The notes beneath the pieces are model-generated. The model made no database searches. It was not told where the DNA came from and worked only from the letters and a program-made list of their open reading frames with translations. Shown here piece by piece: positions 14,478-37,483 of a stretch of 64,000 nucleotides of DNA (the first letter of the stretch is position 1; each line of letters starts with the position of its first letter). The stretch is from Candidatus Poribacteria bacterium (lineage in GTDB: Bacteria > Poribacteria > WGA-4E > WGA-3G): contig JAAXHD010000315.1 in assembly GCA_012271015.1 (NCBI GenBank), positions 26,762-90,761 on the forward strand, written 5' to 3'. The position numbers were made by a program, and so were the translations under genes.

Positions 14478-14730
14478 TGCGGTCAAATTTTGCTACTCCA
14501 GTCGACGAAATATCTTCTCAATTATGATAATATTTTTTCCCCCAAAAAATCAAGCAATAACACAACGCAAGTTCCACCTTTGAATATCACGCTGTTAGAT
14601 TGGGTTTCCTGTGGAACGTAAACTGAAAGTTTGCGTTACAAAGCACAGCAAATATGGTCTACTTGAACGTGCGATAAGTCGCACTCTTACGAGCATATCT
14701 CAAAATTCAAAGTAGCGTGGGGCTTATAAA

Positions 14731-17177: not shown

Positions 17178-17996
17178 TTATGTCAAACTCACGTTACTAC
17201 TATGCGAAAAAACCAATGGCAGATGTTCATCGTCCGCCAACACGTCGCCAGTCTTCAACTTCGCAAACACTTCATCGGGCAGCGCGCTTTTCTTCCCATT
17301 GAATGTGGCATCTTCCGGCATAAATAGCATTGCAAACGCACGACGGGGATGCGTCGTCATATTCGGTCCCGCCGCATGCGCGACCATCCCACTGATGAAC
17401 ACACCGGCTCCGGCTTTCATCTCAGCGGCGTAAGGTTCAATCTCCGCCCACTCTGGATATTCACGGAACAGTTCGCCGACTCCCGTCTGTCCGAGGATTC
17501 CACCAATTTCAAAGTTGCTCGTTTTGTGTGTACCGGGCAGAAAATACAAACAACCGTTCTGGACTGTTGTATCGTCGAGGGCTATCCAAAACATGATCGC
17601 TTGATGTGAATAGAATGGGTCATAAGGATTATCGACATGGAAGTTCGTTGGATTTGCCCAGGGTTGTTTAACCATGGCGTGGTCGTGATACAATCGCACG
17701 CCCGAAGTGCCAGCGATATCTGCTGCCAGTCTACCCAACTCAGGATCGAGAATCAACTGTTTAATCTTCTCGCTCGTCTTCCACAAATTGACGCATTGCA
17801 CGAAGACATTCTTGTAGTAATTGTCTTTTCCCTTCTGATTGTGGTAGGTATCATCACGCTTCATAAATTGCGCGACAGCCTCGTCAACAGCATCCTGCCA
17901 CGATGACAACTCGGCACCGTTCAAGAAATCGTCAATAACCAGAAACCCATTTTCACGGTAAAATTCAATCTGCTCACTCGTAACGTGTGTGTTCAT
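17178..17996 (-). CDS. phytanoyl-CoA dioxygenase (PhyH) family Fe(II)/2OG oxygenase
   Basis: IEFYRENGFLVIDDFL, H-x-D in TNFHVDNPYD, distal His in GMVAHAAGPN. The first 51 aa of the ORF-track translation lie inside a repeat element, so ATG at 17994-17996 (MNTHV...) is preferred. Confidence 0.8.
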   Translation of the reverse strand: MNTHVTSEQIEFYRENGFLVIDDFLNGAELSSWQDAVDEAVAQFMKRDDTYHNQKGKDNYYKNVFVQCVNLWKTSEKIKQLILDPELGRLAADIAGTSGVRLYHDHAMVKQPWANPTNFHVDNPYDPFYSHQAIMFWIALDDTTVQNGCLYFLPGTHKTSNFEIGGILGQTGVGELFREYPEWAEIEPYAAEMKAGAGVFISGMVAHAAGPNMTTHPRRAFAMLFMPEDATFNGKKSALPDEVFAKLKTGDVLADDEHLPLVFSHSSNVSLT

Positions 17997-18045
17997 TTTT
18001 TTTTGCCGATTACGTGAGTAAGAAAATAAAAATCCAAGTGTAAAC

Positions 18046-18277
18046 GTAGGTTGGGTAGAGCGGTGAAACTCCAAAAGCATTTTATTTCTACGGAGGATCC
18101 TACTTTTCAATGATCCGTGCATATGAATAGGTATAGCGAAACCCAACAATTTAAGTGCTATCGGTATAAGAATGTGTTGGGTTTCACTTGCCCTTTGGTG
18201 GTTTCAGGTTTATAGATGAACTTGAAGCCTATTTCTTTGTAAAATTTTTTAGTAGATTCCCGTTCAACCCAACCTAC
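18046..18277. repeat. structured repeat, GTAGGTTGGGT family (copy 2, direct orientation)
   Basis: 11-bp terminal inverted repeats GTAGGTTGGGT/ACCCAACCTAC. It shares CGTAGGTTGGGTAGAGCRGTGAA, CCTACTTTKCAATGA, AGCGAAACCCAACAAT and TGTTGGGTTTCAC blocks with 17024-17176. Confidence 0.6.
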
Positions 18278-18819: not shown

Positions 18820-21365
18820 CTACTTCAAGATAAGCATCCGCCGCGTCGCAGCGAAATCTCCTGCGGTAAGTGTGTAGAAATAGACACCACTTGCCACAGG
18901 CTCACCGAATTCGTTTCTACCATCCCAATACGCTGCACGGCTACGGCTCTCATACAGACCTGCGGGTTGATGTCCGAGTGCGAATCGTCGGACGATATAA
19001 CCATCGATCGCATAGATCGTTAACGTCACCTCTGCATCTTTGGCGAGTTGATACGGAATCCACGTCTCCGGATTGAACGGATTCGGATAGTTTGGCAAAA
19101 GGGCAGTCTCTTTCGGTATCAACGCTACGAGGAGTTGGTGTAAGAACAGGGTGCCGCGTTGTGCCTTTGTATCCATGAGGTCCAATTGCTGTGCCTGTGA
19201 CAACCAGAGTTTAACATCTGTTGCCGTGAGTATTCTAAGGCTTGGGGATGTAGAGAAGGTGCGGAGGTGCTATTGTCCAATGCACTCGCGACCAAAACGA
19301 GATCAGCAATATTGATGACACCATCACCGTTGACATCAGCAGCTTGACCCGTCTTCCCAAGATTTGAGGCGACTAATACCAAATCAGCGATGTTGACAGT
19401 GCCATCACCGTTTATATCTTCTTTGAGTCCGGTGGATTCCGTTACCTCCGCGTTCTCAACCTGTGGCACAAACGTCTCCCCTGTCCTGTTGGTTAGGAGC
19501 ACATCGGAAAGGGTCAAAATGGATGCCTTCACTGCGACGACTTCAAATGTAAGCGTTGCCAGAGTCCCGTCCCCATTGATTTCTCCAGCGAGAGACGCTG
19601 TGTTCAGCTTGACAAGACTACCCGCTACTTTCGGTTCCACAAAGAACGCACTCGCGGGCAGAAAATCACCATTGGTACTTGAGACATAGCGGAGTGCTGT
19701 CGTATCAAACGACACGGTTGCTTGATAGCCTGAGACATTTTCGCCGTTAGCGATTTTTAGGGACAACTTGAGTTGTTGACCGATATTAGGGGACTGTACA
19801 CTTATAGGCAAGAGACTCACCACTGTATTTGACGGGTCTCCTGTATCGCTATCAACAATTGGTTCAACAGACGGGGACGAAATTTTGTCCCTATTTTCTA
19901 AAAGGAAGTTGGCAATGAGTTCAGCAACAACCTTGCCTTTAGGATTTACCTCGTTAAAGGTTTGATAAACAATACCAATCCTTCCTCGATTACCATCTCG
20001 CACAATAACTGGATCCGCTCTGGTGGCTTGCGAGGTGCCTGTATTACTCGCAAGAACCTTTTCGGCAAACCAATCCCCGGTAAGTTCATCGAGGTGAAAA
20101 GCTCTATCGGATTTAAAATTTGTAAGACTTGGGGTAATCTCTTTGCCATCTTTCGTTACTACCATTGGCGTATTATTTTCCAACCCAAAGTCCCACATTG
20201 TGATATGTGGAATATCCATAATGTCTTGTAAAGTTTGGATACCGTTGTTGTCAACATAACCGAAGTAATCACCATGGTTAAGAATAGTATTTCCGTCAGT
20301 TGATTCAATCCAAATTTCTGCCACAGAACCGTCCGGTTGACTATTAGGAAACGGATAAATAGAAGTTGGTAGGATCCCGTAAAGAATTAAAACATCCACG
20401 TTACCATCTGAAGTTGTTTGAAGCATCCAGTTTCTAACAGCATCTTCGGTTTGAACGATTTCGGCTCGAATCCCTTTTGAATCAAGCAATTGCTTTGCCA
20501 TTTGAGATTGCCGATTGGCATCATCAAGACTCATCCAACTCACAGCCCCTGTATACATCAGAACCTCTATGTTAGACAAATCTTGTGAAATACTGTCCAT
20601 ATCGGCAGGCTCTTCTCCAGTGATAACATTAGGAGGTTCTTCTTGCAGAGTGATTTTTCTAAAAATCGGGCGACTATCTAATAGTACTGCTTCTTCCTTT
20701 AGCATCCGCATTCTATCACCCCATTCCTCAGTTGTATTACCCCATGCTACTACCCTACCATTTAATGATTCTGCTACATTATTATGTCCAGGATCAAGCG
20801 CAAATGCATGACCAAGTTCATGCGCAACTAATCCAAGATAATGATTAGGGAATTCTTTAATGTAATTCATGTTTACAGTAGCATTGCCACCCCATTTGCC
20901 AGCAAGCCATGTAAAACCCATACCTTGTGTACCTAGCAGATTCCTGTCCATCCGCACTCCTCCAACAACAATGAGATGCACATTATCACGAGAATTCCAA
21001 TTTTGCAGATTATTAAATTTGAAAGGAAACTCTGGCTCAATCAATTCTTTAAACATATCAAACATATCACTCCTGAAATAGTGATCGCCGTTATGCTTCG
21101 CATTAATAGTATGAATAATAAGGTTGTTATCTTTATCTGTTTCCAATGGAAATGTTTTATCAGTAAACCCATGTCGTGTCATTTCTGACTGATAATATTT
21201 CTGAATATCTTTCATTATTTTATCATGGTATTCATGATCTATGTCTGGAGCATCTGTTGGCTTAAAATATATAACATGAACATCGAATTTAGCAATGGAT
21301 GAAAGAGACGATACTGAAATTAATATTAGGATCAAAAACGTTAGCAGAAGTCGGAAGTGTTTCAT
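18820..21365 (-). pseudogene. frameshifted secreted zincin-like protein with cohesin-like module, two dockerin-like repeats and C-terminal sorting-type domain
   Basis: ORF 19125-21440 (signal peptide MKHFRLLLTFLILILISVSS from ATG 21363-21365; HELGHAF; cohesin-like GYQATVSFDTTALRYVS...GDGTLATLTFEV; DINGDGTVNIADLVLVASNLG, DVNGDGVINIADLVLVASAL) loses homology to its paralog 30215-32962 after ...ALDNSTSAP. The homologous tail (LWLSQAQQLD...LLPNYPNPFNPETWIPYQL...VYFYTLTAGDFAATRRMLILK) continues in another frame (ORF 18820-19203, open from 19269). The frame switch must lie in 19236-19269, which contains a GGGG run at 19244-19247. Confidence 0.65.
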
Positions 21366-21500
21366 GAAGGTTGCCTTTGTTAACGTGAGTTTGAAAATAA
21401 AAATTGAAGCGTCTTGTAGGTGTTTTATTCTGCAATCCACGTTTAATTATCAAACTCACGTTTTGTTACATATGAGAGTCTATCATAATTGTAAAAAACC

Positions 21501-22304
21501 TCAATCATAGTTACTCGGTCGATGATCACCGAGGAGCCGTCTCTGCTGAGAGTTCGCTTGCCCAAGGATAGATTCGTCAAACTGAAATTTGTTCAAATAA
21601 GGTGGGTATTTCTGTGTAATCATACGCATGGCATAGTGTACCTGCAAGAGGTAACGGGTTTCGTCACTCGTATTGGCAGAACCCCGATGCCAGACTTCAC
21701 TACGGAAAAGCACCACATCCCCCGCATTGCATAGGATACTCTCTTCGCCTCGATTGTTCCACTCGGTCGCCCCGTTTGGAGAACACCCAGAGAAATGGCT
21801 GCCCGGGACAAACTTCGTCGGTCCCAACTCCTCATACATATCATTGAGGTAGTAATGGGCGGTAGTGATGAAGATTGGGACTTTGACGCGTGGGTCGGAA
21901 CGAATCTCTGGGGGTAGACCAATCGGCAGCCAATCCGTGTGTAGCCCTTGATCCGGACGTCCGGGCCCTGTTATCCACGATTGCATACCGATACAGTGAC
22001 AATCCTCACCGTGTGCCGCCTCGGCGACTTCAATAATCGGTAATTTGTCAAGGAATTGAATATACAACGGATCCCGATTAAACGAGTTGTTGATGATTTT
22101 GTTGAGAAATGTGTCGCCATTTTGAGGCGTTTGATGCCGATCCAAGCACTCAGGGATCGCCTCTAATCGATCCATGGTGGCTCGCAACTCGGCGACTTCT
22201 TCAGCATTAAGCACACCGGGGAAATAAACATAACCATCCCTTTCAAGGGCTTCAACTTGGCTTTCTAAATCGTTGTAGGCTACGAGTGAGAGGGCTTTCG
22301 CCAT
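21501..22304 (-). CDS. phytanoyl-CoA dioxygenase (PhyH) family oxygenase, paralog A
   Basis: LERDGYVYFPGVLNAEEVAEL, GLHTDWLPI, FRSEVWHRGSANTS. AGGAGG lies 7 nt before the ATG. Confidence 0.8.
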   Translation of the reverse strand: MAKALSLVAYNDLESQVEALERDGYVYFPGVLNAEEVAELRATMDRLEAIPECLDRHQTPQNGDTFLNKIINNSFNRDPLYIQFLDKLPIIEVAEAAHGEDCHCIGMQSWITGPGRPDQGLHTDWLPIGLPPEIRSDPRVKVPIFITTAHYYLNDMYEELGPTKFVPGSHFSGCSPNGATEWNNRGEESILCNAGDVVLFRSEVWHRGSANTSDETRYLLQVHYAMRMITQKYPPYLNKFQFDESILGQANSQQRRLLGDHRPSNYD

Positions 22305-22798: not shown

Positions 22799-23122
22799 GT
22801 GAACATACAAATCATCCGTAACCGAATTTGCGAAGGCGATTATCTTATAAAACCCCATGCTGTCCAACATGCTCTGAAAGAGGGCTTTGAACGTAAACAC
22901 ATGGTTGAAGCGATTCTCAGTGGTACCATAATCGAAGAATATTTCGACGTACAGCGAGTCTTAATTTGTGGACATACCAGTTTAGACAACACCACAATTT
23001 ATTTGCATATTGTTTGTGAATATGTTGATCCTGTCTATGTTGAATTTGTGACAGCTTATATTCCCGATGAAGGGCAATGGGAACCGCCAGCCTTTAAGCG
23101 TCGGAGACGTAAAAAGAGATAA
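22799..23122 (+). CDS. DUF4258-like toxin candidate
   Basis: GTG start. The pattern IKPHAVQHALKEGFERKHMVEAILSGTIIEEY ... TTIYLHIVCEY ... VTAYIPDEGQWE ... KRRRRKKR matches the usual DUF4258 layout. It sits 3 nt before the next ORF. Confidence 0.55.
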   Translation: MNIQIIRNRICEGDYLIKPHAVQHALKEGFERKHMVEAILSGTIIEEYFDVQRVLICGHTSLDNTTIYLHIVCEYVDPVYVEFVTAYIPDEGQWEPPAFKRRRRKKR

Positions 23123-23125
23123 CTT

Positions 23126-23389
23126 ATGACCCCTAAACCATCCCCAGTTTGCACACAACATAATACAGAAAAAGTATGGCAACAGACCGTGTTTGAATAC
23201 AATGAGGATGGCATATCTGTCCGAGTCCAGAATGTCTGGGCATGGGTATGTCCGGAGGATGGCGAACCCTCTTTTACGCCGGAGACAATGGATGCACTGC
23301 TGGTCACGGTCAGAGAACTTGTTGATACCGCTAAACGTGCAAGACAGCGGAGTCCTGCACTAACTGAATACGCTGTTGCTGTTGGATAA
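23126..23389 (+). CDS. YgiT/MqsA-type zinc-ribbon antitoxin candidate (degenerate ligands)
   Basis: VCTQHN ... ISVRVQNVWAWVCPEDGEPSFTPETMDALLVTVRELVDTAKRAR follows the YgiT-type layout (knuckle, beta-hairpin, knuckle, helix). It has C-x2-H and C-x2-D in place of two C-x2-C pairs. Confidence 0.5.
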   Translation: MTPKPSPVCTQHNTEKVWQQTVFEYNEDGISVRVQNVWAWVCPEDGEPSFTPETMDALLVTVRELVDTAKRARQRSPALTEYAVAVG

Positions 23390-23453: not shown

Positions 23454-24257
23454 TCAATCGTAGTTACTGGGTCGATGGTCGCCCATGAGCCGCTTCTGTC
23501 GAGCGGTGGCTTGGGCGAGAATCGATGCATCGAACTGAAACTTATTCAGATAGGGCGGATACTTCTGTGTAATCATCCGCTGGGCATAGTGGACCTGCAT
23601 GAGATAACGGACTTCGGCACTCGTATTCGCAGAGCCACGATGCCAGACTTCACTACGGAAAAGCACCACATCCCCCGCATTGCATAGGATACTCTCTTCG
23701 CCTCGATTGTTCCACTCGGTCGCCCCGTTTGGAGAACACCCAGAGAAATGGCTGCCCGGGACAAACTTCGTCGGTCCCAACTCCTCATACATATCATTGA
23801 GGTAGTAATGGGCGGTAGTGATGAAGATTGGGACTTTGACGCGTGGGTCGGAACGAATCTCTGCCGGTAGGGAGATTGGCAGCCAATCGGTATGTAATCC
23901 CTGCTCCGGACGTCCGGGTCCCGTCAGCCACGAATGCATACCGATGCAATGGAAATCCTCACCGTGTGCCGCCTCGGCGACTTCAAAAACGGGGGATCTG
24001 TCAAGGAATTGGAGATACAAAGGGTCTCGATTAAACGAGTTGCTGATGAGCTTGTGGAGGAATGTGTCGCCATTTTGAGGTGTTTCGTCCCGATCGTGAG
24101 ACGCTGGAATTGCCTCTAATCGATCCATAGTGGCTCGCAATTCGGCGACTTCCTCAGCATCAAGCACACTCGGAAAATAGACATAACCATCCCTTTCAAG
24201 GGCTTCAACTTGGCTTTCTAAATCGCTGTAGGCAATCAGCGAAAGGGCTTTCGCCAT
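23454..24257 (-). CDS. phytanoyl-CoA dioxygenase (PhyH) family oxygenase, paralog B
   Basis: Same length and motifs as paralog A. Start moved to ATG 24255-24257 (MAKALSL..., AGGAG upstream), matching paralog A. Confidence 0.8.
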   Translation of the reverse strand: MAKALSLIAYSDLESQVEALERDGYVYFPSVLDAEEVAELRATMDRLEAIPASHDRDETPQNGDTFLHKLISNSFNRDPLYLQFLDRSPVFEVAEAAHGEDFHCIGMHSWLTGPGRPEQGLHTDWLPISLPAEIRSDPRVKVPIFITTAHYYLNDMYEELGPTKFVPGSHFSGCSPNGATEWNNRGEESILCNAGDVVLFRSEVWHRGSANTSAEVRYLMQVHYAQRMITQKYPPYLNKFQFDASILAQATARQKRLMGDHRPSNYD

Positions 24258-24304
24258 TTTTACTACTCCTTTCAAACGATAGCAACGGGTCACTGCTCAT
24301 CGCT

Positions 24305-24334
24305 ATGATATGTTAACCCCAACGAAGTTGTCAA
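24305..24334 (-). promoter_or_regulatory. candidate sigma-70 promoter of PhyH paralog B
   Basis: The minus strand reads TTGACA (24334-24329), an 18-nt spacer, then TATCAT (24310-24305), about 50 nt upstream of the ATG. Confidence 0.35.
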
Positions 24335-24414: not shown

Positions 24415-26580
24415 CTATACCGCCTTGAGTTTTCGCCATAGGGTTGTCCGACTGATCCCCAAACGTTGCGCAGCGAGTTGTGGCTTTCCATCGGACTCCT
24501 CCAAAACCCGTTGAACTAATTCACGTTCCAATGCCGCAAGTGGGTTGCTTTCCCTGAGTGCCTGCGTAACAATATCGTCTCTCGAGGAAATAAGGTCGAT
24601 CGGTAGATGTTGTTTTTCAATGCTGCCGCCCTGACATTTGACGAACGCGTGCTCTATAATATTTTCTAACTCTCGCACATTGCCGGGGTAAGTATAATCC
24701 ATTAAGATTTCAAGGGCATCGGGTGAGGTGCGATGAATCGGTTTCTGTGTCTGTTGACTGAATTTTTCGATGAAGTGCTCAATGAGGAGTGGGAGGTCAT
24801 CTCGTCTTTCACGTAGTGGCGGCGGGGTAATCGGGACGACGTTGAGCCTGTAGTATAAATCCTCGCGGAAACGCCCTGCATCAATTTCTGTTTTCAGGAT
24901 TCGATTTGTCGCTGCAATGACACGGACATCTACTTTCTTTGTCTCCGTTGAACCTACCATTTCATATTCGCCTTCTTGCAAGACGCGGAGCAACTTTGCT
25001 TGTGTCCCGAGACTTAACTCACCGATTTCATCAAGGAAAAGGGTGCCGCCATCCGCAGCAGCGAATCGTCCTTCGCGCGTTGCGATAGCATCGGTAAACG
25101 CCCCTCTGACATGTCCAAAGAGTTCACTCTCCAGTAAATTGTCAACCAAGCCAGCGCAATTGACGCGAATGAAGGGTTTTTTCGCCCTCTCGCTATTGTC
25201 GTGGATTGCGTGAGCGATCGGTTCTTTGCCGGTACCGCTTTCACCTTGAATCAGGACGGTCGTTTTCATGGGAGCAACGAGCCGAATTAACTCGAAAATC
25301 TCCCACATTTTCCGATTTTTTCCGATGAGATTCCCAAAGGAATGGCGCGCCTTGAGTTGGGCACTGAGTGCCTTTACCTCCGAGAGATCGCGCGCAAACC
25401 CCTGGATGAATTCTCCTTCGTCATGCGCAATTCGGATCGCACGAATTTCCAAGGATAAACGGTTTTTGTTTTTACGGGACAGTTTCGTTTGGAAAGTAAT
25501 AGGATTCCGTTGGTCGAGTCCTTTGAGCGTTTCGCGGATGCTTTGGAATTCATCAGGTGGCATTAGATCACACAGTGACAGATTGACGAGTTCTTGGTGT
25601 GTGTAACCGAGCCATGCACAGAAATTTTCGTTTACGGTAATAAACACTTCTGTGAGTGATGGGCAAATGAAAATTGCGTCGTTGGACATCTCAAAAAGTG
25701 TACGGTAGCGTTTGTTGTTTTCTGCAAGTTTGTCTGTCCAATTCCCTTTTTCAATAAGAATCGAGAGTTGTCCGGCAATCGGTTTAAGTCGCCCAATATG
25801 CGCCTCGGAGAATGCTCGGGGTTGTTCACTGGTGAAAAAGACGACCCCAATGGGTTTACCCTGCACTTTAAGGGGAAGCGTCAGATTTGAGCGCATCCCC
25901 TCTTGGACCATCAATCTTGTCCAGTTCGTCGGTCTTCTTGCGAGAATTTCCTTAAAATCGTCAATAATCCGCGCTTCACCTGAATTGAGGATAGGCTCAA
26001 GGCTTGACCCTTTGATCTTTGCTGAAAACCCGTTGTCCAGCAAGATTTTTCTGTTGGATTTCGTTTTGCACTGCACTAAATCACCGGAGGACTCGTCAAT
26101 GAGTGCTATTCCTAATCGGTTATGCGGCACTATGTTCTGAAGTCCAGCGTAGATATTCTCAAAGACTTCATCGAGTGTCTTTCCGAGCTGAATCTGCTCA
26201 AGGATTCCATAGATATGATCAGCTTCAACGGTTTGGTTGAGAACGGTATCTTCGAGCCTGTTGTTTACTGGAGCTTCAGGGGGAATTGCGATCTGAAGGG
26301 TATCTCCATGAACCCGGAGTGGGTAGGTTCGGAGATTCGGCGTGGTAATCGGACATCCACTTTTCAGATTGTATTGCCAACCGTGCCACGGACAGGTAAC
26401 GACTTCACCCGCCAGTGTTCCCTCATTGAGCGGTCCTCCCTGATGCGGACAGGTGTTATTGATCGCATAAAATTCTGTACCCGTGTTAAAGATTGCGATG
26501 TCTTCATCGTCCAATTTGATGACGATATTCTGTCCCGGTTCAACTGCAGATGTTTTAACGACATTAATCCACTTCACCAT
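24415..26580 (-). CDS. sigma-54-dependent enhancer-binding protein with N-terminal Rieske [2Fe-2S] domain (Rieske-GAF-PAS-AAA+-HTH)
   Basis: Rieske boxes NNTCPHQGGPL and VVTCPWHGWQY. GAF-like and PAS-like segments. AAA+ core with GESGTGKE, GAFTDA, DEIGEL. C-terminal AAQRLGISRTTLWRKLK. GGAGGG lies before the ATG. Confidence 0.8.
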   Translation of the reverse strand: MVKWINVVKTSAVEPGQNIVIKLDDEDIAIFNTGTEFYAINNTCPHQGGPLNEGTLAGEVVTCPWHGWQYNLKSGCPITTPNLRTYPLRVHGDTLQIAIPPEAPVNNRLEDTVLNQTVEADHIYGILEQIQLGKTLDEVFENIYAGLQNIVPHNRLGIALIDESSGDLVQCKTKSNRKILLDNGFSAKIKGSSLEPILNSGEARIIDDFKEILARRPTNWTRLMVQEGMRSNLTLPLKVQGKPIGVVFFTSEQPRAFSEAHIGRLKPIAGQLSILIEKGNWTDKLAENNKRYRTLFEMSNDAIFICPSLTEVFITVNENFCAWLGYTHQELVNLSLCDLMPPDEFQSIRETLKGLDQRNPITFQTKLSRKNKNRLSLEIRAIRIAHDEGEFIQGFARDLSEVKALSAQLKARHSFGNLIGKNRKMWEIFELIRLVAPMKTTVLIQGESGTGKEPIAHAIHDNSERAKKPFIRVNCAGLVDNLLESELFGHVRGAFTDAIATREGRFAAADGGTLFLDEIGELSLGTQAKLLRVLQEGEYEMVGSTETKKVDVRVIAATNRILKTEIDAGRFREDLYYRLNVVPITPPPLRERRDDLPLLIEHFIEKFSQQTQKPIHRTSPDALEILMDYTYPGNVRELENIIEHAFVKCQGGSIEKQHLPIDLISSRDDIVTQALRESNPLAALERELVQRVLEESDGKPQLAAQRLGISRTTLWRKLKAV

Positions 26581-26621
26581 TTCCCTCCATGCGTGAACGG
26601 GATTCGTTATCTATAGGTTAC

Positions 26622-26650
26622 AGACTATCACACAGTAACGCGAATGTCAA
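26622..26650 (-). promoter_or_regulatory. candidate sigma-70 promoter of the enhancer-binding protein gene
   Basis: The minus strand reads TTGACA (26650-26645), a 17-nt spacer, then TAGTCT (26627-26622), about 40 nt upstream of the ATG at 26580. Confidence 0.4.
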
Positions 26651-26656
26651 GAGTTT

Positions 26657-26681
26657 TGTTTCAAAAATGAAAATTGTTTCA
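26657..26681. promoter_or_regulatory. candidate upstream activator site 1
   Basis: TGTTTCA-aaaa-TGAAAAT (one mismatch from a perfect palindrome), immediately followed by a third TGTTTCA half-site. Confidence 0.4.
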
Positions 26682-26732
26682 TTTGTGCAATAACCTTTAT
26701 TTCTAAGACCCCTAAGCAATTCGCTTGGGTTT

Positions 26733-26750
26733 TGTTTCAGATTTGAAACA
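26733..26750. promoter_or_regulatory. candidate upstream activator site 2
   Basis: Perfect palindrome TGTTTCA-gatt-TGAAACA, about 80 bp upstream of the -24 element. Confidence 0.45.
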
Positions 26751-26825
26751 CATCGGTAAAATCTGGAATTTCGTTTTAACCCGTAAAACGTTGATATATC
26801 TCAATTATGTAAGAACCTAAACACT

Positions 26826-26840
26826 TGGCACCAAACTTGC
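26826..26840 (+). promoter_or_regulatory. sigma-54 (-24/-12) promoter
   Basis: Exact TGGCAC-N5-TTGC (TGGCACcaaacTTGC), about 85 nt upstream of the ATG at 26927 and divergent from a sigma-54 activator gene. Confidence 0.7.
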
Positions 26841-26926
26841 TACCTTATTGCTAAAGACAAAAGATAGTTAACCCGATTTTGAGTTAGACGATAAGGTTTA
26901 ACTCAAAACTTCAGGAGGATCTAAAA

Positions 26927-27337
26927 ATGAGCCGTTATCTTGAACACGCCAACATGACCGTGAATGACCTTGAAAAAGCAATTGATTTCCTAACAACCGC
27001 CTTTCCAGATTTTCGCGTCAGGGGTGGTGGTGATAATGCGAACGGAACGAAATGGTGTCACCTTGGGACTGACGATTTTTACATTGCATTGTCAGACCGC
27101 ACGCATCCCTTCACAGGTGAGCGGGAAGGGACCTATGTGAACCATCTCGGTTTTGCTGTCGATGACGCTGAAGGTATCCGGGAACGTATGTTGGCTGCCG
27201 GATATAAAGAAGGTTACAAAGTCGGACCCCATCCTTACCGAAAACGGATCTATTTCATTGATGCGGATGGTTTTGAATGGGAGTTCGTCGAGTACTTCAC
27301 GGATGATCCAGCGAAACGGAACGATTATTCACAGTGA
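26927..27337 (+). CDS. VOC (glyoxalase/bleomycin-resistance/extradiol dioxygenase fold) protein
   Basis: LEHANMTVNDLEKAIDFL, VNHLGFAVDD, IYFIDADGFEWEFVEY. AGGAGG lies before the ATG. Confidence 0.7.
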   Translation: MSRYLEHANMTVNDLEKAIDFLTTAFPDFRVRGGGDNANGTKWCHLGTDDFYIALSDRTHPFTGEREGTYVNHLGFAVDDAEGIRERMLAAGYKEGYKVGPHPYRKRIYFIDADGFEWEFVEYFTDDPAKRNDYSQ

Positions 27338-27374
27338 AAATAAATTCTGTTCTGGATGCAGTGCTTATTAAAAC

Positions 27375-27414
27375 TTGTAGGGTTCAGGCATGGTGCTTGC
27401 CCTACAAATTTTTT
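27375..27414 (+). terminator. rho-independent terminator
   Basis: 8-bp stem TTGTAGGG / CCCTACAA with a 17-nt loop, followed by ATTTTTT, 38 nt after the VOC stop codon. Confidence 0.6.
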
Positions 27415-27470: not shown

Positions 27471-29288
27471 TCATTCTTCGTCAATAGACCAGGTACAGTT
27501 GATATTATTGTTCTTGTAAAATCGCTTTAGGGCTGACTTATCAAACCATAGCTGCATCTCTTTGCCTACAATATGCCCGACACTGCTCACCTTGAGATAA
27601 AGGCCACCCGCTGTCCAGCCGGGTATGATGTCGTAGCGTCCGGTTTGTGCGGCGTAGATGCTCAGCAGTGCCAGCGGCTCCATCGCATCAAGGTTTGCTG
27701 TTTTATGAGTGTCCTGCAGAATCTCAATCACGGTTTTTCCTTCATGAGACTCCTGCAATTCTGGTTTATCCATGACCTTGCTATAGAGGGTAAAATCATC
27801 TTCAAGCGTAAATAGACCGCTATCGGCGTGTTGTCTACCTTGAAGCAGATTGTCCCCGATTCGCTCCGCCATCGCCAGAAATTCTGTCTTCGGCTCTATA
27901 CGGTACAGATCCACCAGCGCGAAGATATAAGCGGGTTCTAAGGCAGTTGTGTCAAAATTCAACGAGGATTGACTGTTTTTGTCAGCCCCGATATCTCCGA
28001 TTCCGAAGGCTTTAAACATCGTGCGTAGGTAGTCCCTGAACGCACTTTTGCCTCCAGAAACCCGATAGCCGCGGGCACAAACGGAGGTAAAGAGCGATGT
28101 AATGTTTTGCGGCAGAAATGCGCCGCCTTCTTTCGCGCCAAAGTAAAGCTTCTCTATCCTGAAGGGTCCCTTTATCCGAAAACCTGTCAGATCCGTCCCA
28201 TCAATAACAATGCTTTTCAGCGTATTGTTTTTCGGATCGTAGGAAGCGTTTAAAAAGCCGATGATGTGTTGCTCAACTGCCTCTTTGATGTGCGCCATTT
28301 CACCGATCCGTCCGTACTTTTCAGCATTCTCTACGATTGTCAGCATACCCATCATCTGGGTAATGGTGTGGTTCAACTGATTGCCGACATAGACCCTCGG
28401 CTCGGTCGCTTGCGGATACTTTCTGCCGAATACGTTAAGCCCGCGTTTGTCACTTTGCGGATGCACCAGATTGGGCCAGATCCCGGTCTCTGGATCCCGC
28501 TGTTGTATAATCAGATTTAAGAGGCGTTCGCCCCAAATCCGCGGTGCCTCCTCCTGCTTTTGATAACCCAAACTGTAAGCGGCATAAGCCAGATCTAATG
28601 CCACACTGATAAACGAGAGATCCGTACTGATTTCGGGTGCCTTGTACCCGTCCCAGGGTCTGTTCCAAGTGTTGGCGTGATCGACCTGTTTTCTGAAATC
28701 GCCGTGTCGGTTGTAGTGTAAGGCATCCCAATCCTTGATATTCGCTTCCCAAATCCCTTTCATCAGCATCTCGCCGCGGTCCGAGTCCACGGCTCTCAAC
28801 AATTCCCAGTAAGGATATACGTCCTCTATTTCGTGGACAACGCCCTTCATCCCGTACCTATTCCCAGTTACTAAGTCGACATATCCGTGCCCTCCCCAAT
28901 GCAGAACGCCGCTTTCTGGATACCAGTAGTTATTGAACATGTATTCGGCGGCTTCTCCGGCGGCGTGGACATATTTGCCATCCCCAGTGAACTGACTTAA
29001 AGAAGATAGTAACCGCATTAGGTTTTGCTGGTTTTGAAAGAAACTCCAGACCGCGGGTTTTGGCTCGGTACCTGTGCGGTGTGATGTCATAGATCTGGGT
29101 GCCTTCAAATGATCGGTATGAAGGCAGTCAGCAAAGAACGGCATATTTTTCCCACTGTATCTATCCCTTCCATATTGTATCGCCGTATCTGCGAAAAGAC
29201 TAGCGGCTTTTAGAAAGCGGTTATCGTCTATTTCGTTGGGACGCAATCGGTTTCTGCCGATCCACCGATCCAAGCGATTACGGTTCAT
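27471..29288 (-). CDS. conserved-looking hypothetical protein (605 aa, Trp/Tyr-rich, possibly an alpha-toroid carbohydrate-active fold)
   Basis: Long uninterrupted ORF with GGAGG before the ATG. No catalytic signature recognised, so the fold suggestion is only an impression from composition. Confidence 0.4.
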   Translation of the reverse strand: MNRNRLDRWIGRNRLRPNEIDDNRFLKAASLFADTAIQYGRDRYSGKNMPFFADCLHTDHLKAPRSMTSHRTGTEPKPAVWSFFQNQQNLMRLLSSLSQFTGDGKYVHAAGEAAEYMFNNYWYPESGVLHWGGHGYVDLVTGNRYGMKGVVHEIEDVYPYWELLRAVDSDRGEMLMKGIWEANIKDWDALHYNRHGDFRKQVDHANTWNRPWDGYKAPEISTDLSFISVALDLAYAAYSLGYQKQEEAPRIWGERLLNLIIQQRDPETGIWPNLVHPQSDKRGLNVFGRKYPQATEPRVYVGNQLNHTITQMMGMLTIVENAEKYGRIGEMAHIKEAVEQHIIGFLNASYDPKNNTLKSIVIDGTDLTGFRIKGPFRIEKLYFGAKEGGAFLPQNITSLFTSVCARGYRVSGGKSAFRDYLRTMFKAFGIGDIGADKNSQSSLNFDTTALEPAYIFALVDLYRIEPKTEFLAMAERIGDNLLQGRQHADSGLFTLEDDFTLYSKVMDKPELQESHEGKTVIEILQDTHKTANLDAMEPLALLSIYAAQTGRYDIIPGWTAGGLYLKVSSVGHIVGKEMQLWFDKSALKRFYKNNNINCTWSIDEE

Positions 29289-29744: not shown

Positions 29745-30086
29745 ATGACAACCCAAATTCGCGAAGAAAAAGGCATTTCGATTTTGCGACCGAGTGGGAA
29801 GATCGTAGGATCCGCCGTATCAGACTTACGAGAGACACTTTTACCGAAGATAGAGGATTCCGATGCCGCGCGCGTCCTCCTCAACTTTGAAAATGTCCGC
29901 ATGATTGATAGTTCAGGGCTCGGGGTGCTCATAGAAGCACATACCGTCGCAAAACGTAGGAACGGTCGCATCGGTGCTATTCATATTGGAAAACACATTA
30001 AGAATCTGGTTGTTGTGCATCGGCTTATTCATATCTTTGAACATTTCGATGACGAGGCAGAGGCGGTTTCGGCACTGTCCGACTAA
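29745..30086 (+). CDS. STAS-domain anti-sigma-factor antagonist (SpoIIAA-like)
   Basis: ISILRPSGKIVG..., conserved phospho-serine context MIDSSGLGVLIEAH, length 113 aa. Confidence 0.7.
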   Translation: MTTQIREEKGISILRPSGKIVGSAVSDLRETLLPKIEDSDAARVLLNFENVRMIDSSGLGVLIEAHTVAKRRNGRIGAIHIGKHIKNLVVVHRLIHIFEHFDDEAEAVSALSD

Positions 30087-30214: not shown

Positions 30215-32962
30215 CTATTTCTCAATTAGCATCTTTCGCGTTCCTGTGAAATCATCTGCTGTTAGTGTGTAAAAGTAAAGACCACTCGCCACGGACTCAC
30301 CCATATCATTTCTACCATCCCAATACGCTGCGCGGCTACGGCTTTGATAGATGCCAGCAGCCATTGGTCCCAATGCTAATGTCCGAACCAATGCCCCGTT
30401 TATAGCGTAGATACGCAAGGTGACCTCAGCAGGGACCGACAACTGATATGGTATCCACGTTTCTGGATTGAATGGGTTCGGATAGTTGGCAAGCAAAACC
30501 GTCTCTTTTGGAAGGAGTGATGTTAGGAGGCGTTGGAGGTTAGCAATTCCGTGTTGGAACAGCATCGAACCGTCATTCTGAGCGTGCGCCAAGCCTATCC
30601 ACTGCTGAATCACCTCAGGATCGAGTCGAATGTCTTTCACAAAAACGGAAGGTGCGGCGGTCCCCGTTGATTCGCCGAGGTGTTGGGCTACAATAACGAG
30701 ATCTAAGATATTGATAATCCCATCACCGTTTATATCAACTCGCGGGCTAGAGGATACAGTGTCGCCTAAATGCTGCGCGACCAGCACCAGATCCAAAATG
30801 TTCGTTTGGCTATCTGCATTGACATCCCAGGTCGGTAGCATCGATCTGGATGCCATCGTAATTGATGTCGTATACACAGCCTTGCTTTCAAACCCAAAAA
30901 ATCCGCTCCAACCGCCCCAGAACTCGTAAACAGCAACGAGTAATATATTGGTGCCCCGTTTGAGGACGACAGGGAACGCATCCTGGTAATCATTCGCCCC
31001 TCGATCAATAGAATTGTTGTGAACCAAATTTCCGTTAAGCCAGACCTTGACAGCATCATCGCTCCCGACGTACATAGTTGTGTTCTGCTCTTGTGGGGAA
31101 TCCAAAGCAATATAACCATAAGCAACATGGTTTTCTATATTGCCGTGCCCCAAACCAATGGCATTCACCATCTCATTAATGTTATTTTCGCCTATGGCGG
31201 AGAGGTTTCCGACTGTCCAAACCCTGTTTCCTACCGCATCTCCAACAGTTGTCCCATTGGTGGCAACTCGCTCTTCTGTAACCGCCCCCTGACTTGCTGA
31301 GGACAGCCAATCTATTCCCGAGGCGGCAGCCCGTGCGCCCCCCACTCTTCCTGTAGGTGCAATCATCCACAACCAGGGTCCCTCGATTTTTGGACCTGGT
31401 GTCTTTGACTTTGCCACAGTCGCCCCTTTAATTTCCATCACTGTATAAACTGCGTCTTTGTGAAAACCGAAAAAGCCGCTCCACTCACCCCAATTCTCAT
31501 AGACCGCGACCAATAAGACATTTTCGTCCGCTCTGAGTGTTACGGGGAAATGGTCCTGGTAATCCTCACTGGCTCGGTCTACAGGCTTGTCATGGACCAA
31601 TTCACCGTTGAGCCAGACTTTCACGGCATCATCGCTACCAACAAACATCCGTGTATTCTGCTTTTTGGGGGATTTCAGCTTAAGCGAGCCGTATATCACC
31701 GCTTTGTCTATAGCCCCAATCCCTGAACCTATAGTGCGTGCTACCTCTGTGAGGTTATCCTTGCCTATGGGGGCGATTGTGCCGGGGGCCCAGACGTTGT
31801 TTCCGACGGAATCTCCCGATGTTGCTCCCTTGGTAGCAATTTCTATCTCTGTTACTGCGGCATTGGTTGCTTCTGATAGATAATCTATCCCAGAAGCAGC
31901 GGCAGCAGCACCGCCGCGCCATCCTGTGGGGACAATTGTCCACAGCCAAGGCCCCTCTATTTTGGCACCTGTAATGGCGAATTCCTCGATCGAAAAACTT
32001 TTTCCGGTATAGTTTCCAAAGGTATCTATTACCCGTAGCCCAACCTGAGACACACCTCGAACGGTTAACTCCGTGGTAACAAAGTCAAAAGTGCTGGTTT
32101 TGTTGCCCTTTAGAGATCGGCACGCAAGCAATTCTGGCTGGTCGACAGCCCCGGGGACAGCAGTCGTGTTTACGTTCAACTGTGCTTGGAAGAGTCCATC
32201 GGGATCGCTGACTTTAAAACGAAAGCGGATCGCATCGGAAGGTTCTGTTTTTGCTTTTAGCATCTCAATCACAGTGGGGCGATCGCCTTGTTTGTTCCCA
32301 GCATTGAAGTAAGGATGGACATTTAACCATTCGGCAGCACATGCCGAGAATATCCCACGGTGGTACCCGTAAGACATGATGTAGTCATCTGACCTGAAAT
32401 CATGTGCCAATCCGAAGTTGTGCCCAAGTTCATGTGCTACGAGTGCAATATCCAAATCTCCGGTAACACAGTGGCCGGAAGCAGGAATTAGCGAGTATCC
32501 TCCACCGATTTCGCCGTGTACATTCGTCGCCTGTCCGCAGGTGTTCCCATCATCAAAGGCTTCACTGGTGAGTTCGATAACAATCAAGTATATATTTTTT
32601 GAGGCATCAAACTGCTTAGCAAGTTCCGCTGTGACTTTATTAGTGGTCTCGTGACGATAGTATGTGCTTGCAAACTGTCCGTTGAAGCGATGCACAATCG
32701 TTTTGTTATTGTTACCGGTTTCAATTGTAAAGGTTTTTCGTTTGTGTCCGTGGCGTTGCATCTCATTGGCATAAAGCTGCTGCACATTTTTTAATAACAC
32801 ATCTAATTCCTTGTTGATGTTTTGCTGCGGCGTTGCATCGCTTGGAAGGAAATAGATAAGCCGGACGGTACGTTTGGGCGTGGTGTTTTGTGCCATGCTG
32901 TATGGTAAAAATATAACAATAGAAAATAAAAGGGTGAGTAGGAAAAATAACACGGTTTTCAT
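30215..32962 (-). CDS. secreted metzincin-like zinc protease with tandem beta-sandwich-like modules, dockerin-like repeats and C-terminal sorting-type domain
   Basis: Signal peptide MKTVLFFLLTLLFSIVIFLPYSMA from ATG 32960-32962 (AAGGAGG upstream). HELGHNFGLAHD is the HExxHxxGxxHD signature. Two modules of about 170 aa both start IEGPWLW and end WSGFFGF. Dockerin-like DVNADSQTNILDLVLVAQHLG and DINGDGIINILDLVIVAQHLG. Tail is LLANYPNPFNPETWIPYQL...LYFYTLTADDFTGTRKMLIEK. Confidence 0.7.
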   Translation of the reverse strand: MKTVLFFLLTLLFSIVIFLPYSMAQNTTPKRTVRLIYFLPSDATPQQNINKELDVLLKNVQQLYANEMQRHGHKRKTFTIETGNNNKTIVHRFNGQFASTYYRHETTNKVTAELAKQFDASKNIYLIVIELTSEAFDDGNTCGQATNVHGEIGGGYSLIPASGHCVTGDLDIALVAHELGHNFGLAHDFRSDDYIMSYGYHRGIFSACAAEWLNVHPYFNAGNKQGDRPTVIEMLKAKTEPSDAIRFRFKVSDPDGLFQAQLNVNTTAVPGAVDQPELLACRSLKGNKTSTFDFVTTELTVRGVSQVGLRVIDTFGNYTGKSFSIEEFAITGAKIEGPWLWTIVPTGWRGGAAAAASGIDYLSEATNAAVTEIEIATKGATSGDSVGNNVWAPGTIAPIGKDNLTEVARTIGSGIGAIDKAVIYGSLKLKSPKKQNTRMFVGSDDAVKVWLNGELVHDKPVDRASEDYQDHFPVTLRADENVLLVAVYENWGEWSGFFGFHKDAVYTVMEIKGATVAKSKTPGPKIEGPWLWMIAPTGRVGGARAAASGIDWLSSASQGAVTEERVATNGTTVGDAVGNRVWTVGNLSAIGENNINEMVNAIGLGHGNIENHVAYGYIALDSPQEQNTTMYVGSDDAVKVWLNGNLVHNNSIDRGANDYQDAFPVVLKRGTNILLVAVYEFWGGWSGFFGFESKAVYTTSITMASRSMLPTWDVNADSQTNILDLVLVAQHLGDTVSSSPRVDINGDGIINILDLVIVAQHLGESTGTAAPSVFVKDIRLDPEVIQQWIGLAHAQNDGSMLFQHGIANLQRLLTSLLPKETVLLANYPNPFNPETWIPYQLSVPAEVTLRIYAINGALVRTLALGPMAAGIYQSRSRAAYWDGRNDMGESVASGLYFYTLTADDFTGTRKMLIEK

Positions 32963-33178
32963 GAAAACCTCCTTATTGGCAGGAAGCGGGTTTGGGAAAC
33001 TCTGCAACATTCTATACCGACTCTGGTGGAACGCAATCAGAAACGTCATCACCTCGCTTGGATGCAGCCTCCACGGATGTGTAAGTTGTTGCGATTTGCT
33101 CCTTCGGATCGACTAGCAGATGAAGGTCGAAATTAGTTAATGGAAAACTCAACGGCTTTGCGTTCGCGTCCAAAACTA

Positions 33179-35740: not shown

Positions 35741-37483
35741 TTACCCGCGTTTTTCACCGGGTTTTCGCCGATGCTTTGATGCATAACCATCCCCTTCTGG
35801 ATCGTAGGAAACGGACACCTGTCCACCTTCCACAACCAGCCGCGGTACAGTTCGATGGCGCCCATCCCGTTCAGGTCCTCGCATGACAGAGAATTGCGCC
35901 TCGGTCATATCTTCCACTATATCACCCCACCGGTCTTGCGGATCAATCACACCACCGCCCCAATTGACATTTTTCGACTGATACTTAATCAATACCCCGC
36001 GTCTGGGGATTGGATTCTTCCACGCTAAGGCACCGTGTGTGCAACCGCCGTCCATAAAAAAGAGAACGTCCCCGGCTTTCATAGTGGGTTGTACGACCAA
36101 ACCCATGGTATCATCACACGTCCGAATCCCGTGAGGCATGGCGTACTGGGTTTTATGCGACCCGGGCACACAGGCAAAACCGCCCAATCCCGGCTCAACA
36201 TCGCGCAATTGCCACGTAATGGTTACAGTCTCGGCATAACTGCGTCCGTTCTTAAAATAATAACCGCGTGATGGCGTCATCGGCTCATTTCCATCGTGGA
36301 GCGAGTGCCCCGATGTCCCTTGAACGGCACAGAACACGGTCGCCCCAGTCGTGCGGTAACCGCTACCGCCCATCCAATTCAGTCGATGCACCACAGCCGG
36401 GTGCGCAATCATACGACGGAATGGGGCATTATAGGGTTCGGGTAAGTCTAACAAGCCCGGCAGGAGCGGTCGTCCTGTCCCAGCCTGACTTATCGATCCC
36501 CTTGCCAATTCCTCGCCTACGACAATACGATCTTGGAATTTATCCACCGCCTCATTGGCTTCTGCGAGCCACTGCTCATCCATCACGCCACGCACTACTA
36601 CATACCCATTCAGATCCCAAAAGTAGAACTCTTTCTCATCAATTCCCGAATCTGGATCGCGGATATAAATTGATGGATGAATGATGGACGAATCTTCCTC
36701 TACCCACGTCTCTTCGCCGTCTGTATTTAACACCGGCGGCGGATTTGAACCTTTAAACCCAGGGATATACATGACCGCCTTTTGTTCAGGCGTTGCTTCA
36801 TCCACCCATCCCGGCAAAGACTCGGTACCTGAGTGAGGTCCAACAGGATTAGACTGAACCGCTGCACGTGCGGCATACCAGTAGGATAACAACCTTTTCG
36901 ATTCACCTTTCCAGGGTCGAACGCCTTGGAGCGTAGGCACGGCAAGTAAAAACAGATCCCCTGCCTTTAGTTCCGGCTGCACCACCACGCCCATATCATC
37001 AACACCGTTCGCTAAATCATCTGGCGTTTGAACATTGCTCTTGTGGCTCGCCTGAATGACAACCAATCCACCGTCCCCTTCTGCGACATCATCCAATGCC
37101 CAGATTGCTTTCACGCCCTGACAACTCCGCCGACCGTTTTGTTGGCGATACGCTTGGGACGGATTCCTCGGTTCATCGCCGCCAACGAGTGTTGAACCCA
37201 TTTCACCTTCTCGATCTCCCAACAATCGAGGGGCTTGATCGAGTCGAAAGCCGTGTCCGATGATCTGATTCAAATACCACACCAATTTGGGATGTACCAG
37301 TAGGTCGCGAAACAATTCGCGGTGCTGACGGGACCCGCCTAACAGCATCTCACTTTCACTGACTTCATCTAATGCCTCGTTGAGTGCCGCCACCTCCTCT
37401 TGACTGAGAACACCCGGAATGTGTAGGTAGCCTGCCACATCAAAAGCATAATTCTCTTCATTGCTCATGACTTCATTGTCCAT
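35741..37483 (-). CDS. fusion of two PhyH-like double-stranded beta-helix domains (N-terminal copy degenerate)
   Basis: Two homologous halves (FDVAGYLHIPGVLSQEEVAALNEAL and WDLNGYVVVRGVMDEQWLAEANEAV). The C-domain has HSLHDGNEP and GGCTHGALAW, whereas the N-domain has STLVGGDEP and VPTLQGVRPW at the aligned positions. AGGAGGG lies before the ATG. Confidence 0.7.
   Translation of the reverse strand: MDNEVMSNEENYAFDVAGYLHIPGVLSQEEVAALNEALDEVSESEMLLGGSRQHRELFRDLLVHPKLVWYLNQIIGHGFRLDQAPRLLGDREGEMGSTLVGGDEPRNPSQAYRQQNGRRSCQGVKAIWALDDVAEGDGGLVVIQASHKSNVQTPDDLANGVDDMGVVVQPELKAGDLFLLAVPTLQGVRPWKGESKRLLSYWYAARAAVQSNPVGPHSGTESLPGWVDEATPEQKAVMYIPGFKGSNPPPVLNTDGEETWVEEDSSIIHPSIYIRDPDSGIDEKEFYFWDLNGYVVVRGVMDEQWLAEANEAVDKFQDRIVVGEELARGSISQAGTGRPLLPGLLDLPEPYNAPFRRMIAHPAVVHRLNWMGGSGYRTTGATVFCAVQGTSGHSLHDGNEPMTPSRGYYFKNGRSYAETVTITWQLRDVEPGLGGFACVPGSHKTQYAMPHGIRTCDDTMGLVVQPTMKAGDVLFFMDGGCTHGALAWKNPIPRRGVLIKYQSKNVNWGGGVIDPQDRWGDIVEDMTEAQFSVMRGPERDGRHRTVPRLVVEGGQVSVSYDPEGDGYASKHRRKPGEKRG

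Follow-up and report, generated by a model that had tools for sequence, protein, structure and literature searches.

Sigma-54 enhancer-binding proteins provide a classic example of modular signal input. The use of metal or iron-sulfur (Fe-S) centres is known for just a handful of them (OrpR, VnfA, NorR and PexR). The stretch of DNA described here, a window of 64,000 nucleotides from Candidatus Poribacteria (sponge symbionts, a placement made by a scan of one genome per species), encodes a 721-residue regulator of this type whose chain begins with a Rieske module, together with a divergent gene for a 136-residue protein of the VOC fold. OrpR (DVU2106) of Desulfovibrio vulgaris Hildenborough is, like this regulator, a single-component protein with an N-terminal Fe-S-bearing sensory region, predicted in the present case, and a GAFTDA loop (PMC8359166, PMC4641369). 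The two also have in common a divergent target, at least two dedicated binding sites, the involvement of IHF (here through a tentative site) and a very small regulon. However, the redox-sensitive, Cys-ligated [4Fe-4S] cluster of OrpR lies inside its PAS domain, whereas the candidate 2Cys/2His [2Fe-2S] site of the present protein occupies a separate Rieske module in front of the GAF and PAS domains. OrpR also belongs to another phylum; the poribacterial host is aerobic and sponge-associated, and the present system is known from sequence. The regulator may work like OrpR, but it is not a member of the OrpR type. In NorR and PexR the N-terminal domain autoinhibits the AAA+ motor, as we infer here, and dyads lie 5' of the sigma-54 promoter (PMC2941729, PMC12754779). 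PexR also acts on a sigma-A promoter, akin to the dual role proposed below (PMC12754779). Both proteins differ in that their GAF domain holds a mononuclear metal site through which NO or H2O2 is sensed, and they have no Rieske module (PMC2941729, PMC12754779). Activators of the DmpR/XylR type likewise combine a sensor, AAA+ and HTH_8 in one chain and have a divergent target and upstream activating sequences (UAS), and the AAA+ core described here matches a DmpR structure (6iy8), but their V4R/XylR_N sensor binds aromatic effectors. Sensing through Fe-S or metal centres is known in enhancer-binding proteins (OrpR, PexR, NorR), via other folds and ligands. Outside this class, activation of a neighbouring divergent gene by SoxR is gated by the one-electron redox state of a [2Fe-2S] cluster and not by cluster loss; SoxR differs from the regulator in being a MerR-family protein with a four-Cys cluster that acts on sigma-70 promoters via DNA distortion, and is unrelated in fold and mechanism. 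As for the Rieske module itself, the ferredoxin CarAc (1vck), the NDO ferredoxin (2qpz), BphF and an uncharacterised family of about 101 residues with the boxes CxHRGGPL...VTCPWHGWQY have the same fold, length and ligand boxes and the same absence of a disulfide Cys pair. These stand-alone proteins are free electron carriers, whereas here the module is covalently tethered to an activator.

We consider it rather probable that the poribacterial protein is a single-component, Poribacteria-specific sigma-54 activator in which a Rieske ferredoxin has been fused in front of a GAF-PAS region and which reads its signal partly via the state of the Rieske cluster. The order Rieske, GAF, PAS, sigma-54 AAA+ and Fis-type helix-turn-helix (HTH) had been put forward in a preliminary description of the locus, and each domain is significant in a Pfam search: Rieske (residues 3-85, E 1.7e-19, 70 bits against a cut-off of 20.3; Rieske_2 also matches, E 3.3e-12), GAF_2 (134-277, E 8.8e-13), PAS_9 (300-401, E 5e-13), Sigma54_activat (418-584, E 3.8e-69), AAA_lid_14 (590-668, E 9.8e-27) and HTH_8 (681-720, E 1.9e-11). 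The motifs named in the same description (NNTCPHQGGPL, VVTCPWHGWQY, GESGTGKE, GAFTDA and DEIGEL) were all found on re-reading. NCBIfam models for NifA, NorR, AtoC and similar proteins match only partially and below cut-off, via the AAA+ core, and the regulator therefore falls into no named equivalog. The AAA+ motor is predicted to be competent, because an alignment of 36 family members shows conservation of Walker A (GESGTGKE), Walker B (DEIGEL) and FREDLYYRLN, a segment in the place where the arginine finger is presumed to lie. In Foldseek the core matches ZraR (1ojl), NtrC1, FleQ, FlrC and DmpR (6iy8), with TM-scores of at least 0.9 to the cores of FleQ, NtrC1 and ZraR. The sigma-54 contact loop reads GAFTDA in the clade at 89-93% identity that includes the window, here called the VOC clade; other aligned members have GAFTGA, GAYTGA or GAFSGA in its place. 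GAFTDA also occurs in OrpR, where it is among the loop variants that retain activity (PMC4641369), and OrpR is a sigma-54 activator by experiment (PMC8359166), so that the variant is no argument against a function of the regulator. Three defining features of an enhancer-binding protein are present together, namely an AAA+ domain that has both Walker motifs and an arginine-finger region, a loop of the GAFTGA type, and an HTH domain combined with dyads 5' of a -24/-12 element.

The fusion of these domains is real, conserved and specific to Poribacteria. Eighteen species-representative genomes match essentially the whole 721 residues at 66-92% identity, and in a nineteenth, L025, the match is confined to residues 118-721. 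Fifteen of the 19 loci have an intact frame with the CPWHGW box; three further members, from the 66% clade, have CPWHEW instead. Among 5.8 billion clusters, a search returned about 50 protein clusters of 712-743 residues at 51-93% identity, all with Rieske, GAF, PAS, Sigma54_activat and HTH_8, and the score falls from 770 to 458 bits at the edge of the family, which is therefore sharply bounded. Database names of the relatives are generic ('hypothetical protein', 'PAS domain S-box-containing protein', 'sigma 54-interacting transcriptional regulator'). Outside Poribacteria, in the scan of one genome per species, matches cover just the Rieske part or the AAA+ part, and protein searches found no independent Rieske-activator fusion in other phyla, although a word-based search could miss distant ones. 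A search of the accessible literature found no paper joining a Rieske domain to an enhancer-binding protein, in agreement with the earlier claim that the architecture is uncharacterised. That the family consists of pseudogenes or fragments was considered and rejected: the relatives of 167-520 residues derive from long-read assemblies of low coverage, where the adjacent genes are split too, and intact versions of about 720 residues are common. The short relatives are sequencing artefacts, not pseudogenes.

Conservation of the four Cys/His ligands, on which the preliminary description had made its Rieske assignment depend, is nearly complete, with C44 and C63 invariant and H46 and H66 present in 35 of the 36 aligned regulators, down to 51% identity. 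The check by profile and structure proposed there gave the Pfam match listed above and an all-beta AlphaFold2 (AF2) prediction with a predicted local distance difference test (pLDDT) score of 70-88. Throughout the AF2 model the domains reach pLDDT 70-90 but the linkers 102-120, 282-298 and 405-419 stay below 50, which fits a tethered, independently folded Rieske module. Mean pairwise identity is 0.57 for the Rieske region, 0.70 for GAF (the highest of the sensory domains), 0.52 for PAS and 0.19 for the linker behind the Rieske module; judging by the alignment, the module is under selection. The ligand boxes, C44-P-H46 and C63-P-W-H66 (CPHQGG and CPWHGW), contain no additional Cys, and the disulfide Cys in each box that marks high-potential Rieske proteins of the bc1/b6f type is absent. 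Without a second Cys pair, the module therefore belongs to the ferredoxin/oxygenase (low-potential) class. A PDB sequence search gave CarAc (1vck, 2.1e-14) and the NDO ferredoxin (2qpz) as the best solved relatives, with the ligands aligned. The closest unfused relatives are free Rieske ferredoxins of about 101 residues, found in Nitrospirota, Acidobacteriota, Myxococcota and Planctomycetota, which show 40-51% identity and the same VTCPWHGWQY box, and the architecture suggests that a complete small ferredoxin of about 100 residues was captured. A copy from the neighbouring target enzymes, which in several clades carry a Rieske domain of their own, is unsupported, since identity to the Rieske domains of these targets is 25-38%, against 40-51% to the free ferredoxins. 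The Rieske ligands are the only invariant Cys residues of the sensory region. In the PAS domain, Cys306 is kept in 29 and Cys321 in 31 of the 36 members, too few for a Cys-ligated PAS cluster in the style of OrpR.

The cis elements of the 346-bp divergent spacer (26581-26926) form a further line of evidence; their coordinates, together with those of the domains and genes, are given in the table.

Table. Features of the Rieske-regulator locus, with positions counted in the window; invariant positions are from 11 aligned co-linear orthologous spacers
Feature	Position	Strand	Invariant positions	Basis or remark
PhyH-family dioxygenase gene 3' of the regulator	23454..24334 (gene 23454-24293)	-		Pfam PhyH; promoter scan
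Regulator gene, Rieske–GAF–PAS–sigma-54 AAA+–lid–HTH_8	24415..26580	-		Open reading frame (ORF) reading and Pfam
AAA+ lid (residues 590-668) and Fis-type HTH_8 (681-720)	24421..24813	-		Pfam
Sigma-54 interaction AAA+ core (418-584)	24829..25329	-		Pfam; Foldseek; motif conservation
PAS domain (296-404)	25369..25695	-		Pfam PAS_9; matches PDB PAS sensor domains 3bwl and 2r78
GAF domain (134-277)	25750..26181	-		Pfam GAF_2
Variable, predicted disordered linker, Rieske to GAF (100-120)	26221..26283	-		AF2 pLDDT <50 at 102-120; identity 0.19
Rieske [2Fe-2S] module (3-99)	26284..26574	-		Predicted ligands C44, H46, C63, H66; Pfam
Regulator sigma-70-type promoter, TTGACA-N17-(TG)nTAGTCT	26622..26650	-	-35 hexamer 6/6; -10 hexamer 4/6	-35 at 26645-26650, -10 at 26622-26627
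Dyad UAS-C, TGTTTCA-N4-TGAAAAT	26657..26674	.	12/18	6 bp from the regulator -35
Dyad UAS-B, TGTTTCA-N4-TGCAATA	26675..26692	.	14/18	Abuts UAS-C
Dyad UAS-A, TGTTTCA-N4-TGAAACA, perfect	26733..26750	.	13/18	Centred ~85 bp 5' of the -24 element
IHF-consensus-like site TATCAACGTTTTA, tentative	26784..26796	-	8/13	Exact match to WATCAANNNNTTR; between UAS-A and the promoter
Sigma-54 promoter, TGGCAC-N5-TTGC	26826..26840	+	11/15	Sole exact match in the window; conserved position
30 bp just 3' of -12			1/30	
VOC 5' untranslated region (UTR) hairpin just before the ribosome-binding site, partly pairing with it	26872..26915	+		-19.3 kcal/mol, z -3.1
VOC-fold metalloenzyme gene	26927..27337	+		Pfam Glyoxalase PF00903, E 2.7e-11; GGAGG ribosome-binding site
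Intrinsic terminator of the VOC gene, hairpin and U run	27370..27414	+		Hairpin about 27370-27412

The exact -24/-12 element noted earlier is confirmed, ends 86 nt before the VOC ATG, and would place the start site of the VOC transcript near 26851-26853. Among the 66-93% clades, 23 loci (all 19 of the VOC clade, the 81% locus and those of the 66% clade) have it at the same relative place and in the orientation of the divergent gene; within the VOC clade 16 of the 19 matches are exact, and the 66% clade has TGGCAT-N5-TTGC. Two palindromes of the type TGTTTCA-N4-TGAAACA had also been described. One of them, UAS-A, is indeed perfect, whereas the other, UAS-C, has two mismatches and not one. The supposed extra half-site at 26675-26681 belongs to a third 18-bp dyad, UAS-B, of which it forms the left half and which is better preserved in orthologs. 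Allowing up to two mismatches, the dyad occurs four times in the window against 0.43 expected, a number reached in 0 of 100 shuffles, and three of the four copies lie within 94 bp. These three are centred 85-162 bp 5' of TGGCAC-N5-TTGC. The conservation of palindromes and -24/-12 element next to orthologous regulators, suggested earlier as a check, is borne out by a layout that is kept in the 23 loci: UAS-A is present in all VOC-clade loci and lies about 75-90 bp 5' of the -24/-12 element in almost all 23, and UAS-B and UAS-C are found in most loci at about -113 and -95 from the regulator start, next to its -35 hexamer. The dyads of the 66% clade are recognisably alike; the GC-rich clades at 53-57% show a drifted operator. 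The regulator promoter TTGACA-N17-TAGTCT is present as described, with an upstream TG and a -35 hexamer that does not vary among the 11 spacers. The regulator itself may start at a GTG at 26577, because orthologs lack the ATG in a comparison of start codons. The IHF-like site is a tentative lead only, as 10 such matches occur in the window against 3.4 expected.

In several genomes, elements of about 118-270 bp with the inverted-repeat ends GGACTTACGCA...TGCGTAAATCC are inserted between UAS-A and UAS-B and leave the binding sites untouched (L001 5765-5882, L018 7653-7769 and L024 7781-7877, with similar ones in L007 and L016); their common GC-rich hairpin core recurs elsewhere in Poribacteria loci. 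Despite the inserts, UAS-A stays with the sigma-54 promoter and UAS-B and UAS-C stay with the regulator promoter. Because the inserts separate the dyads in this way, each group keeping its promoter, a division of labour seems probable in which UAS-A is the proximal enhancer and UAS-B and UAS-C are extra assembly sites (three dimers would make a hexamer) and an autoregulatory operator. In L023 (about 7150-7830), some 600 bp are inserted between the IHF-like site and UAS-A, so that nearly 700 bp separate the enhancer and the sigma-54 promoter; this insert has a strong sigma-70-like promoter, TTGACA-N17-TATAAT. The fourth dyad-like sequence of the window (9001-9018) was considered as a sign of a second regulon member and rejected; it lies within an ORF, has no sigma-54-like site within about 2 kb and is taken as a chance match.

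The presumed target belongs to a compact VOC subfamily, for which a search gave 541 representative clusters at E <= 1e-3; the highest identity among them is 57%. Membership of the target in the superfamily is clear from the predicted structure (AF2 pLDDT 91.9; Foldseek probability 1.00 to GlxI and FosX), the Foldseek neighbours being glyoxalase I, GloA2, FosX/A/B, TnmS1 and L-DOPA dioxygenase at 18-26% identity. H7, H73, E119, P27 and Y109 are invariant, and the metal site is predicted to be a 2-His-1-Glu site formed by H7, H73 and E119. An assignment below the superfamily was not obtained from NCBIfam, the PDB sequence search, Foldseek or cluster names, and the closest relatives are called 'VOC family protein'. 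The scores are far below the NCBIfam cut-offs for glyoxalase I (GloA; 22.5 against 165 and 16.5 against 120), whose second ligand Glu position is not conserved here, and for the fosfomycin enzyme FosBx1 (18.4 against 290), to which the likeness is at the level of the fold only (21-26% identity). The detoxification enzyme of the preliminary description is thus upheld as to its VOC fold, but its detoxifying role was a guess. A glutathione synthetase gene, gshB (13431-14486, minus strand), lies 12 kb from the locus; the host therefore makes glutathione, which is relevant if the VOC enzyme is thiol-dependent. The 88-nt terminator region folds at -26.2 kcal/mol (z -2.4) and is not listed by a generic terminator scan. 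With this terminator and a convergent next gene (27471..29288, minus strand), the VOC gene is monocistronic here. A conserved regulatory RNA in its 5' UTR was rejected, as orthologous UTRs vary in length (59-270 nt) and fold.

The single-gene regulon of the preliminary description holds for the window but not for its sister genomes. In the VOC clade the divergent locus always includes the VOC gene, and other genes may stand between it and the promoter, namely a 372-residue M24/creatinase-like gene in L013, L014 and L024 and a 129-residue small cupin gene in L009 and L020; the cargo of the operon behind the sigma-54 promoter is variable. In the 81%, 66%, 57% and 53% clades the divergent genes encode proteins of 589-631 residues, of two paralogous types, with an N-terminal Rieske domain followed by about 480 C-terminal residues that match neither Pfam nor, by sequence, a solved structure (L019 3530-7500, L017 5576-7471, L085 3619-5388, L087 5007-6824 and L004 1191-5067, all on the minus strand). 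This family of Rieske proteins of about 600 residues is abundant in Poribacteria and extends to Latescibacteria. In the 63% clade the neighbour is a short-chain dehydrogenase. The layout of promoter and dyads persists where the target gene differs. From these comparisons, the deepest and most frequent partner appears to be the Rieske-domain protein of about 600 residues, and the VOC association a recent rewiring.

We hypothesize the following mechanism. The regulator would bind as dimers to the three 18-bp dyads, T(G/A)TTTCA-N4-TGAAACA, and would form a ring that spends ATP on opening the divergent -24/-12 promoter and so drives the VOC gene; through the two abutting dyads next to its own sigma-70 promoter it probably also regulates itself. 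Before a signal arrives, assembly of the AAA+ domain or its contact with sigma-54 is most likely blocked by the N-terminal sensory region, as in NorR, PexR and OrpR. The signal would be read, at least in part, from the state of the Rieske cluster, either by its one-electron oxidation or reduction or by its damage or loss, and such a change would be passed via GAF-PAS and release the motor. The Fe-S/redox-sensing activator proposed earlier is retained as to its architecture, its sigma-54 promoter, its enhancer-type dyads and its divergent target. The cluster as sensor and the identity of the signal are what we infer from sequence comparison, and so are dyad binding, N-terminal negative control and anything said of the VOC substrate.

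Several points weigh against this mechanism. That the regulator binds a cluster, binds DNA and depends on sigma-54 is in each case a prediction. No RpoN box was found in the 1.18 Mb of collected DNA, a set that covers part of the host genomes, and a literature search found no paper addressing rpoN in Poribacteria; the strict retention of the -24/-12 element across clades with different targets may be taken as indirect support for sigma-54 in this phylum. The exact TGGCAC-N5-TTGC occurs once in 64 kb, but at least once in 11 of 100 shuffles, so a match alone is not rare and its weight rests on position and conservation. The -10 hexamer of the regulator is weak (3 of 6 positions match TATAAT), and its promoter is therefore not listed by a generic promoter scan. 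Comparison with its relatives yielded no substrate for the VOC enzyme, and any physiological logic from signal to response is therefore conjectural. Finally, the Rieske module is dispensable for at least some function, because two relatives do without a working Rieske site. The L025 ortholog (7971-9815 on chromosome OZ246958.1) has a clean in-frame deletion of 339 bp that corresponds exactly to the Rieske module and linker (window 26242-26580), and its locus still has the promoter, the dyads and the VOC gene. P0173, a Candidatus Poribacteria protein of 712 residues at 52-53% identity, has a decayed Rieske domain that has lost the His ligands and carries a deletion in box II, with GAF, PAS, AAA+ and HTH intact. 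GAF or PAS may accordingly be the carrier of the main signal, and GAF, at 0.70, is the best conserved sensory domain.

These last observations lend themselves to another explanation, which we judge unlikely but take most seriously among the alternatives: the protein would be a working sigma-54 activator whose signal is a small ligand or metal at GAF and/or PAS, as in NorR, PexR and FhlA, the Rieske module only tuning the response or docking a partner or electron donor. The loss of the Rieske site in L025 and P0173 with the remainder of the gene kept, and the high conservation of GAF, are as expected from it, and the well-studied relatives NorR and PexR do sense via GAF (PMC2941729 for NorR). 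However, retention of the four ligands in 35 of 36 members, in a module that evolves three times more slowly than the linker, is hard to explain without a cofactor role. When the GAF-PAS region was compared with the PDB by sequence, only PAS sensor domains were matched and no GAF structure, and a ligand or metal site was not identified in GAF.

An extension of the Rieske-sensing hypothesis, possible in our view but doubtful, is that the regulator is the first transcription factor with a true Rieske (2 Cys / 2 His) [2Fe-2S] sensory cofactor, derived from a captured ferredoxin, and that it may read the electron-donor pool of its targets and was later rewired to VOC in the sponge-associated clade; reading of a shared donor pool is suggested because the deepest clades face enzymes of about 600 residues that start with a Rieske domain. 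The same neighbours could be taken to mean that the module is an electron carrier, in a bifunctional protein that feeds adjacent oxygenase-type enzymes (Rieske-domain proteins, PhyH), since the module is a complete copy of a widespread type of stand-alone ferredoxin of about 101 residues, at 40-51% identity, and the deeper clades do adjoin Rieske-domain proteins. We think this very improbable: the target in the VOC clade is no Rieske-dependent oxygenase, PhyH enzymes run on 2-oxoglutarate and not on ferredoxin, the few copies of a regulator suit a sensor and not a metabolic carrier, and no reductase gene is conserved nearby in the loci compared. An artefact of assembly or frameshift, or a chance -24/-12 element with chance dyads in an AT-rich spacer, suggested by the many fragments among the relatives and by the shuffles that hit TGGCAC-N5-TTGC, is effectively refuted by a frame that runs unbroken through 15 independent loci and some 50 clusters, by the low-coverage assemblies with split neighbouring genes from which the fragments come, and by cis elements fixed in place and sequence in 23 loci while the flanking spacer varies.

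The window contains four genes of the PhyH family (Fe/2-oxoglutarate dioxygenases), at 17178-18149, 21501-22304, 23454-24293 and 35741-37483, all on the minus strand, and two close paralogs among them lie directly 3' of the regulator. Synteny of the regulator and PhyH is held in most VOC-clade loci. Inclusion of PhyH in the sigma-54 regulon was considered and is unlikely, as the gene lies 3' of the regulator, is adjacent to it only in the VOC clade and has a strong sigma-70-like promoter of its own (24334->24305, 11 of 12 matches in the promoter scan). Between the two paralogs, a DUF4258 gene (22799-23122, plus strand) is followed by a gene for an 87-residue Cys-containing protein without a Pfam match (23126-23389, plus strand), a pair that looks like a toxin-antitoxin insertion. 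Dockerin and/or cohesin domains occur in three large proteins (11443-13059, 19125-21440 and 30215-33052, all minus strand); a Cu2 monooxygenase domain is present in one of them as well, and a reprolysin-like metallopeptidase domain in another. A 113-residue STAS-domain protein of the anti-sigma-factor-antagonist type is encoded at 29745-30086 (plus strand), just past a pectate-lyase-like gene.

Compared with the four-Cys clusters of known Fe-S regulators, a Rieske cluster offers exposed His ligands, proton-coupled redox chemistry and a tunable potential. If the proposed mechanism is true, a Rieske-gated activator would introduce a new chemistry of sensing and might also yield a compact redox sensor that is genetically encoded. 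The deletion in OZ246958.1 provides a natural control allele and shows that the Rieske module is separable. The system is compact, its parts being a single regulator, some 200 bp of control DNA and a single target, and it can be rebuilt in a surrogate such as E. coli or Pseudomonas without culture of the host. It also gives a first regulatory handle on the Poribacteria, uncultured and dominant sponge symbionts whose gene regulation is essentially unstudied.

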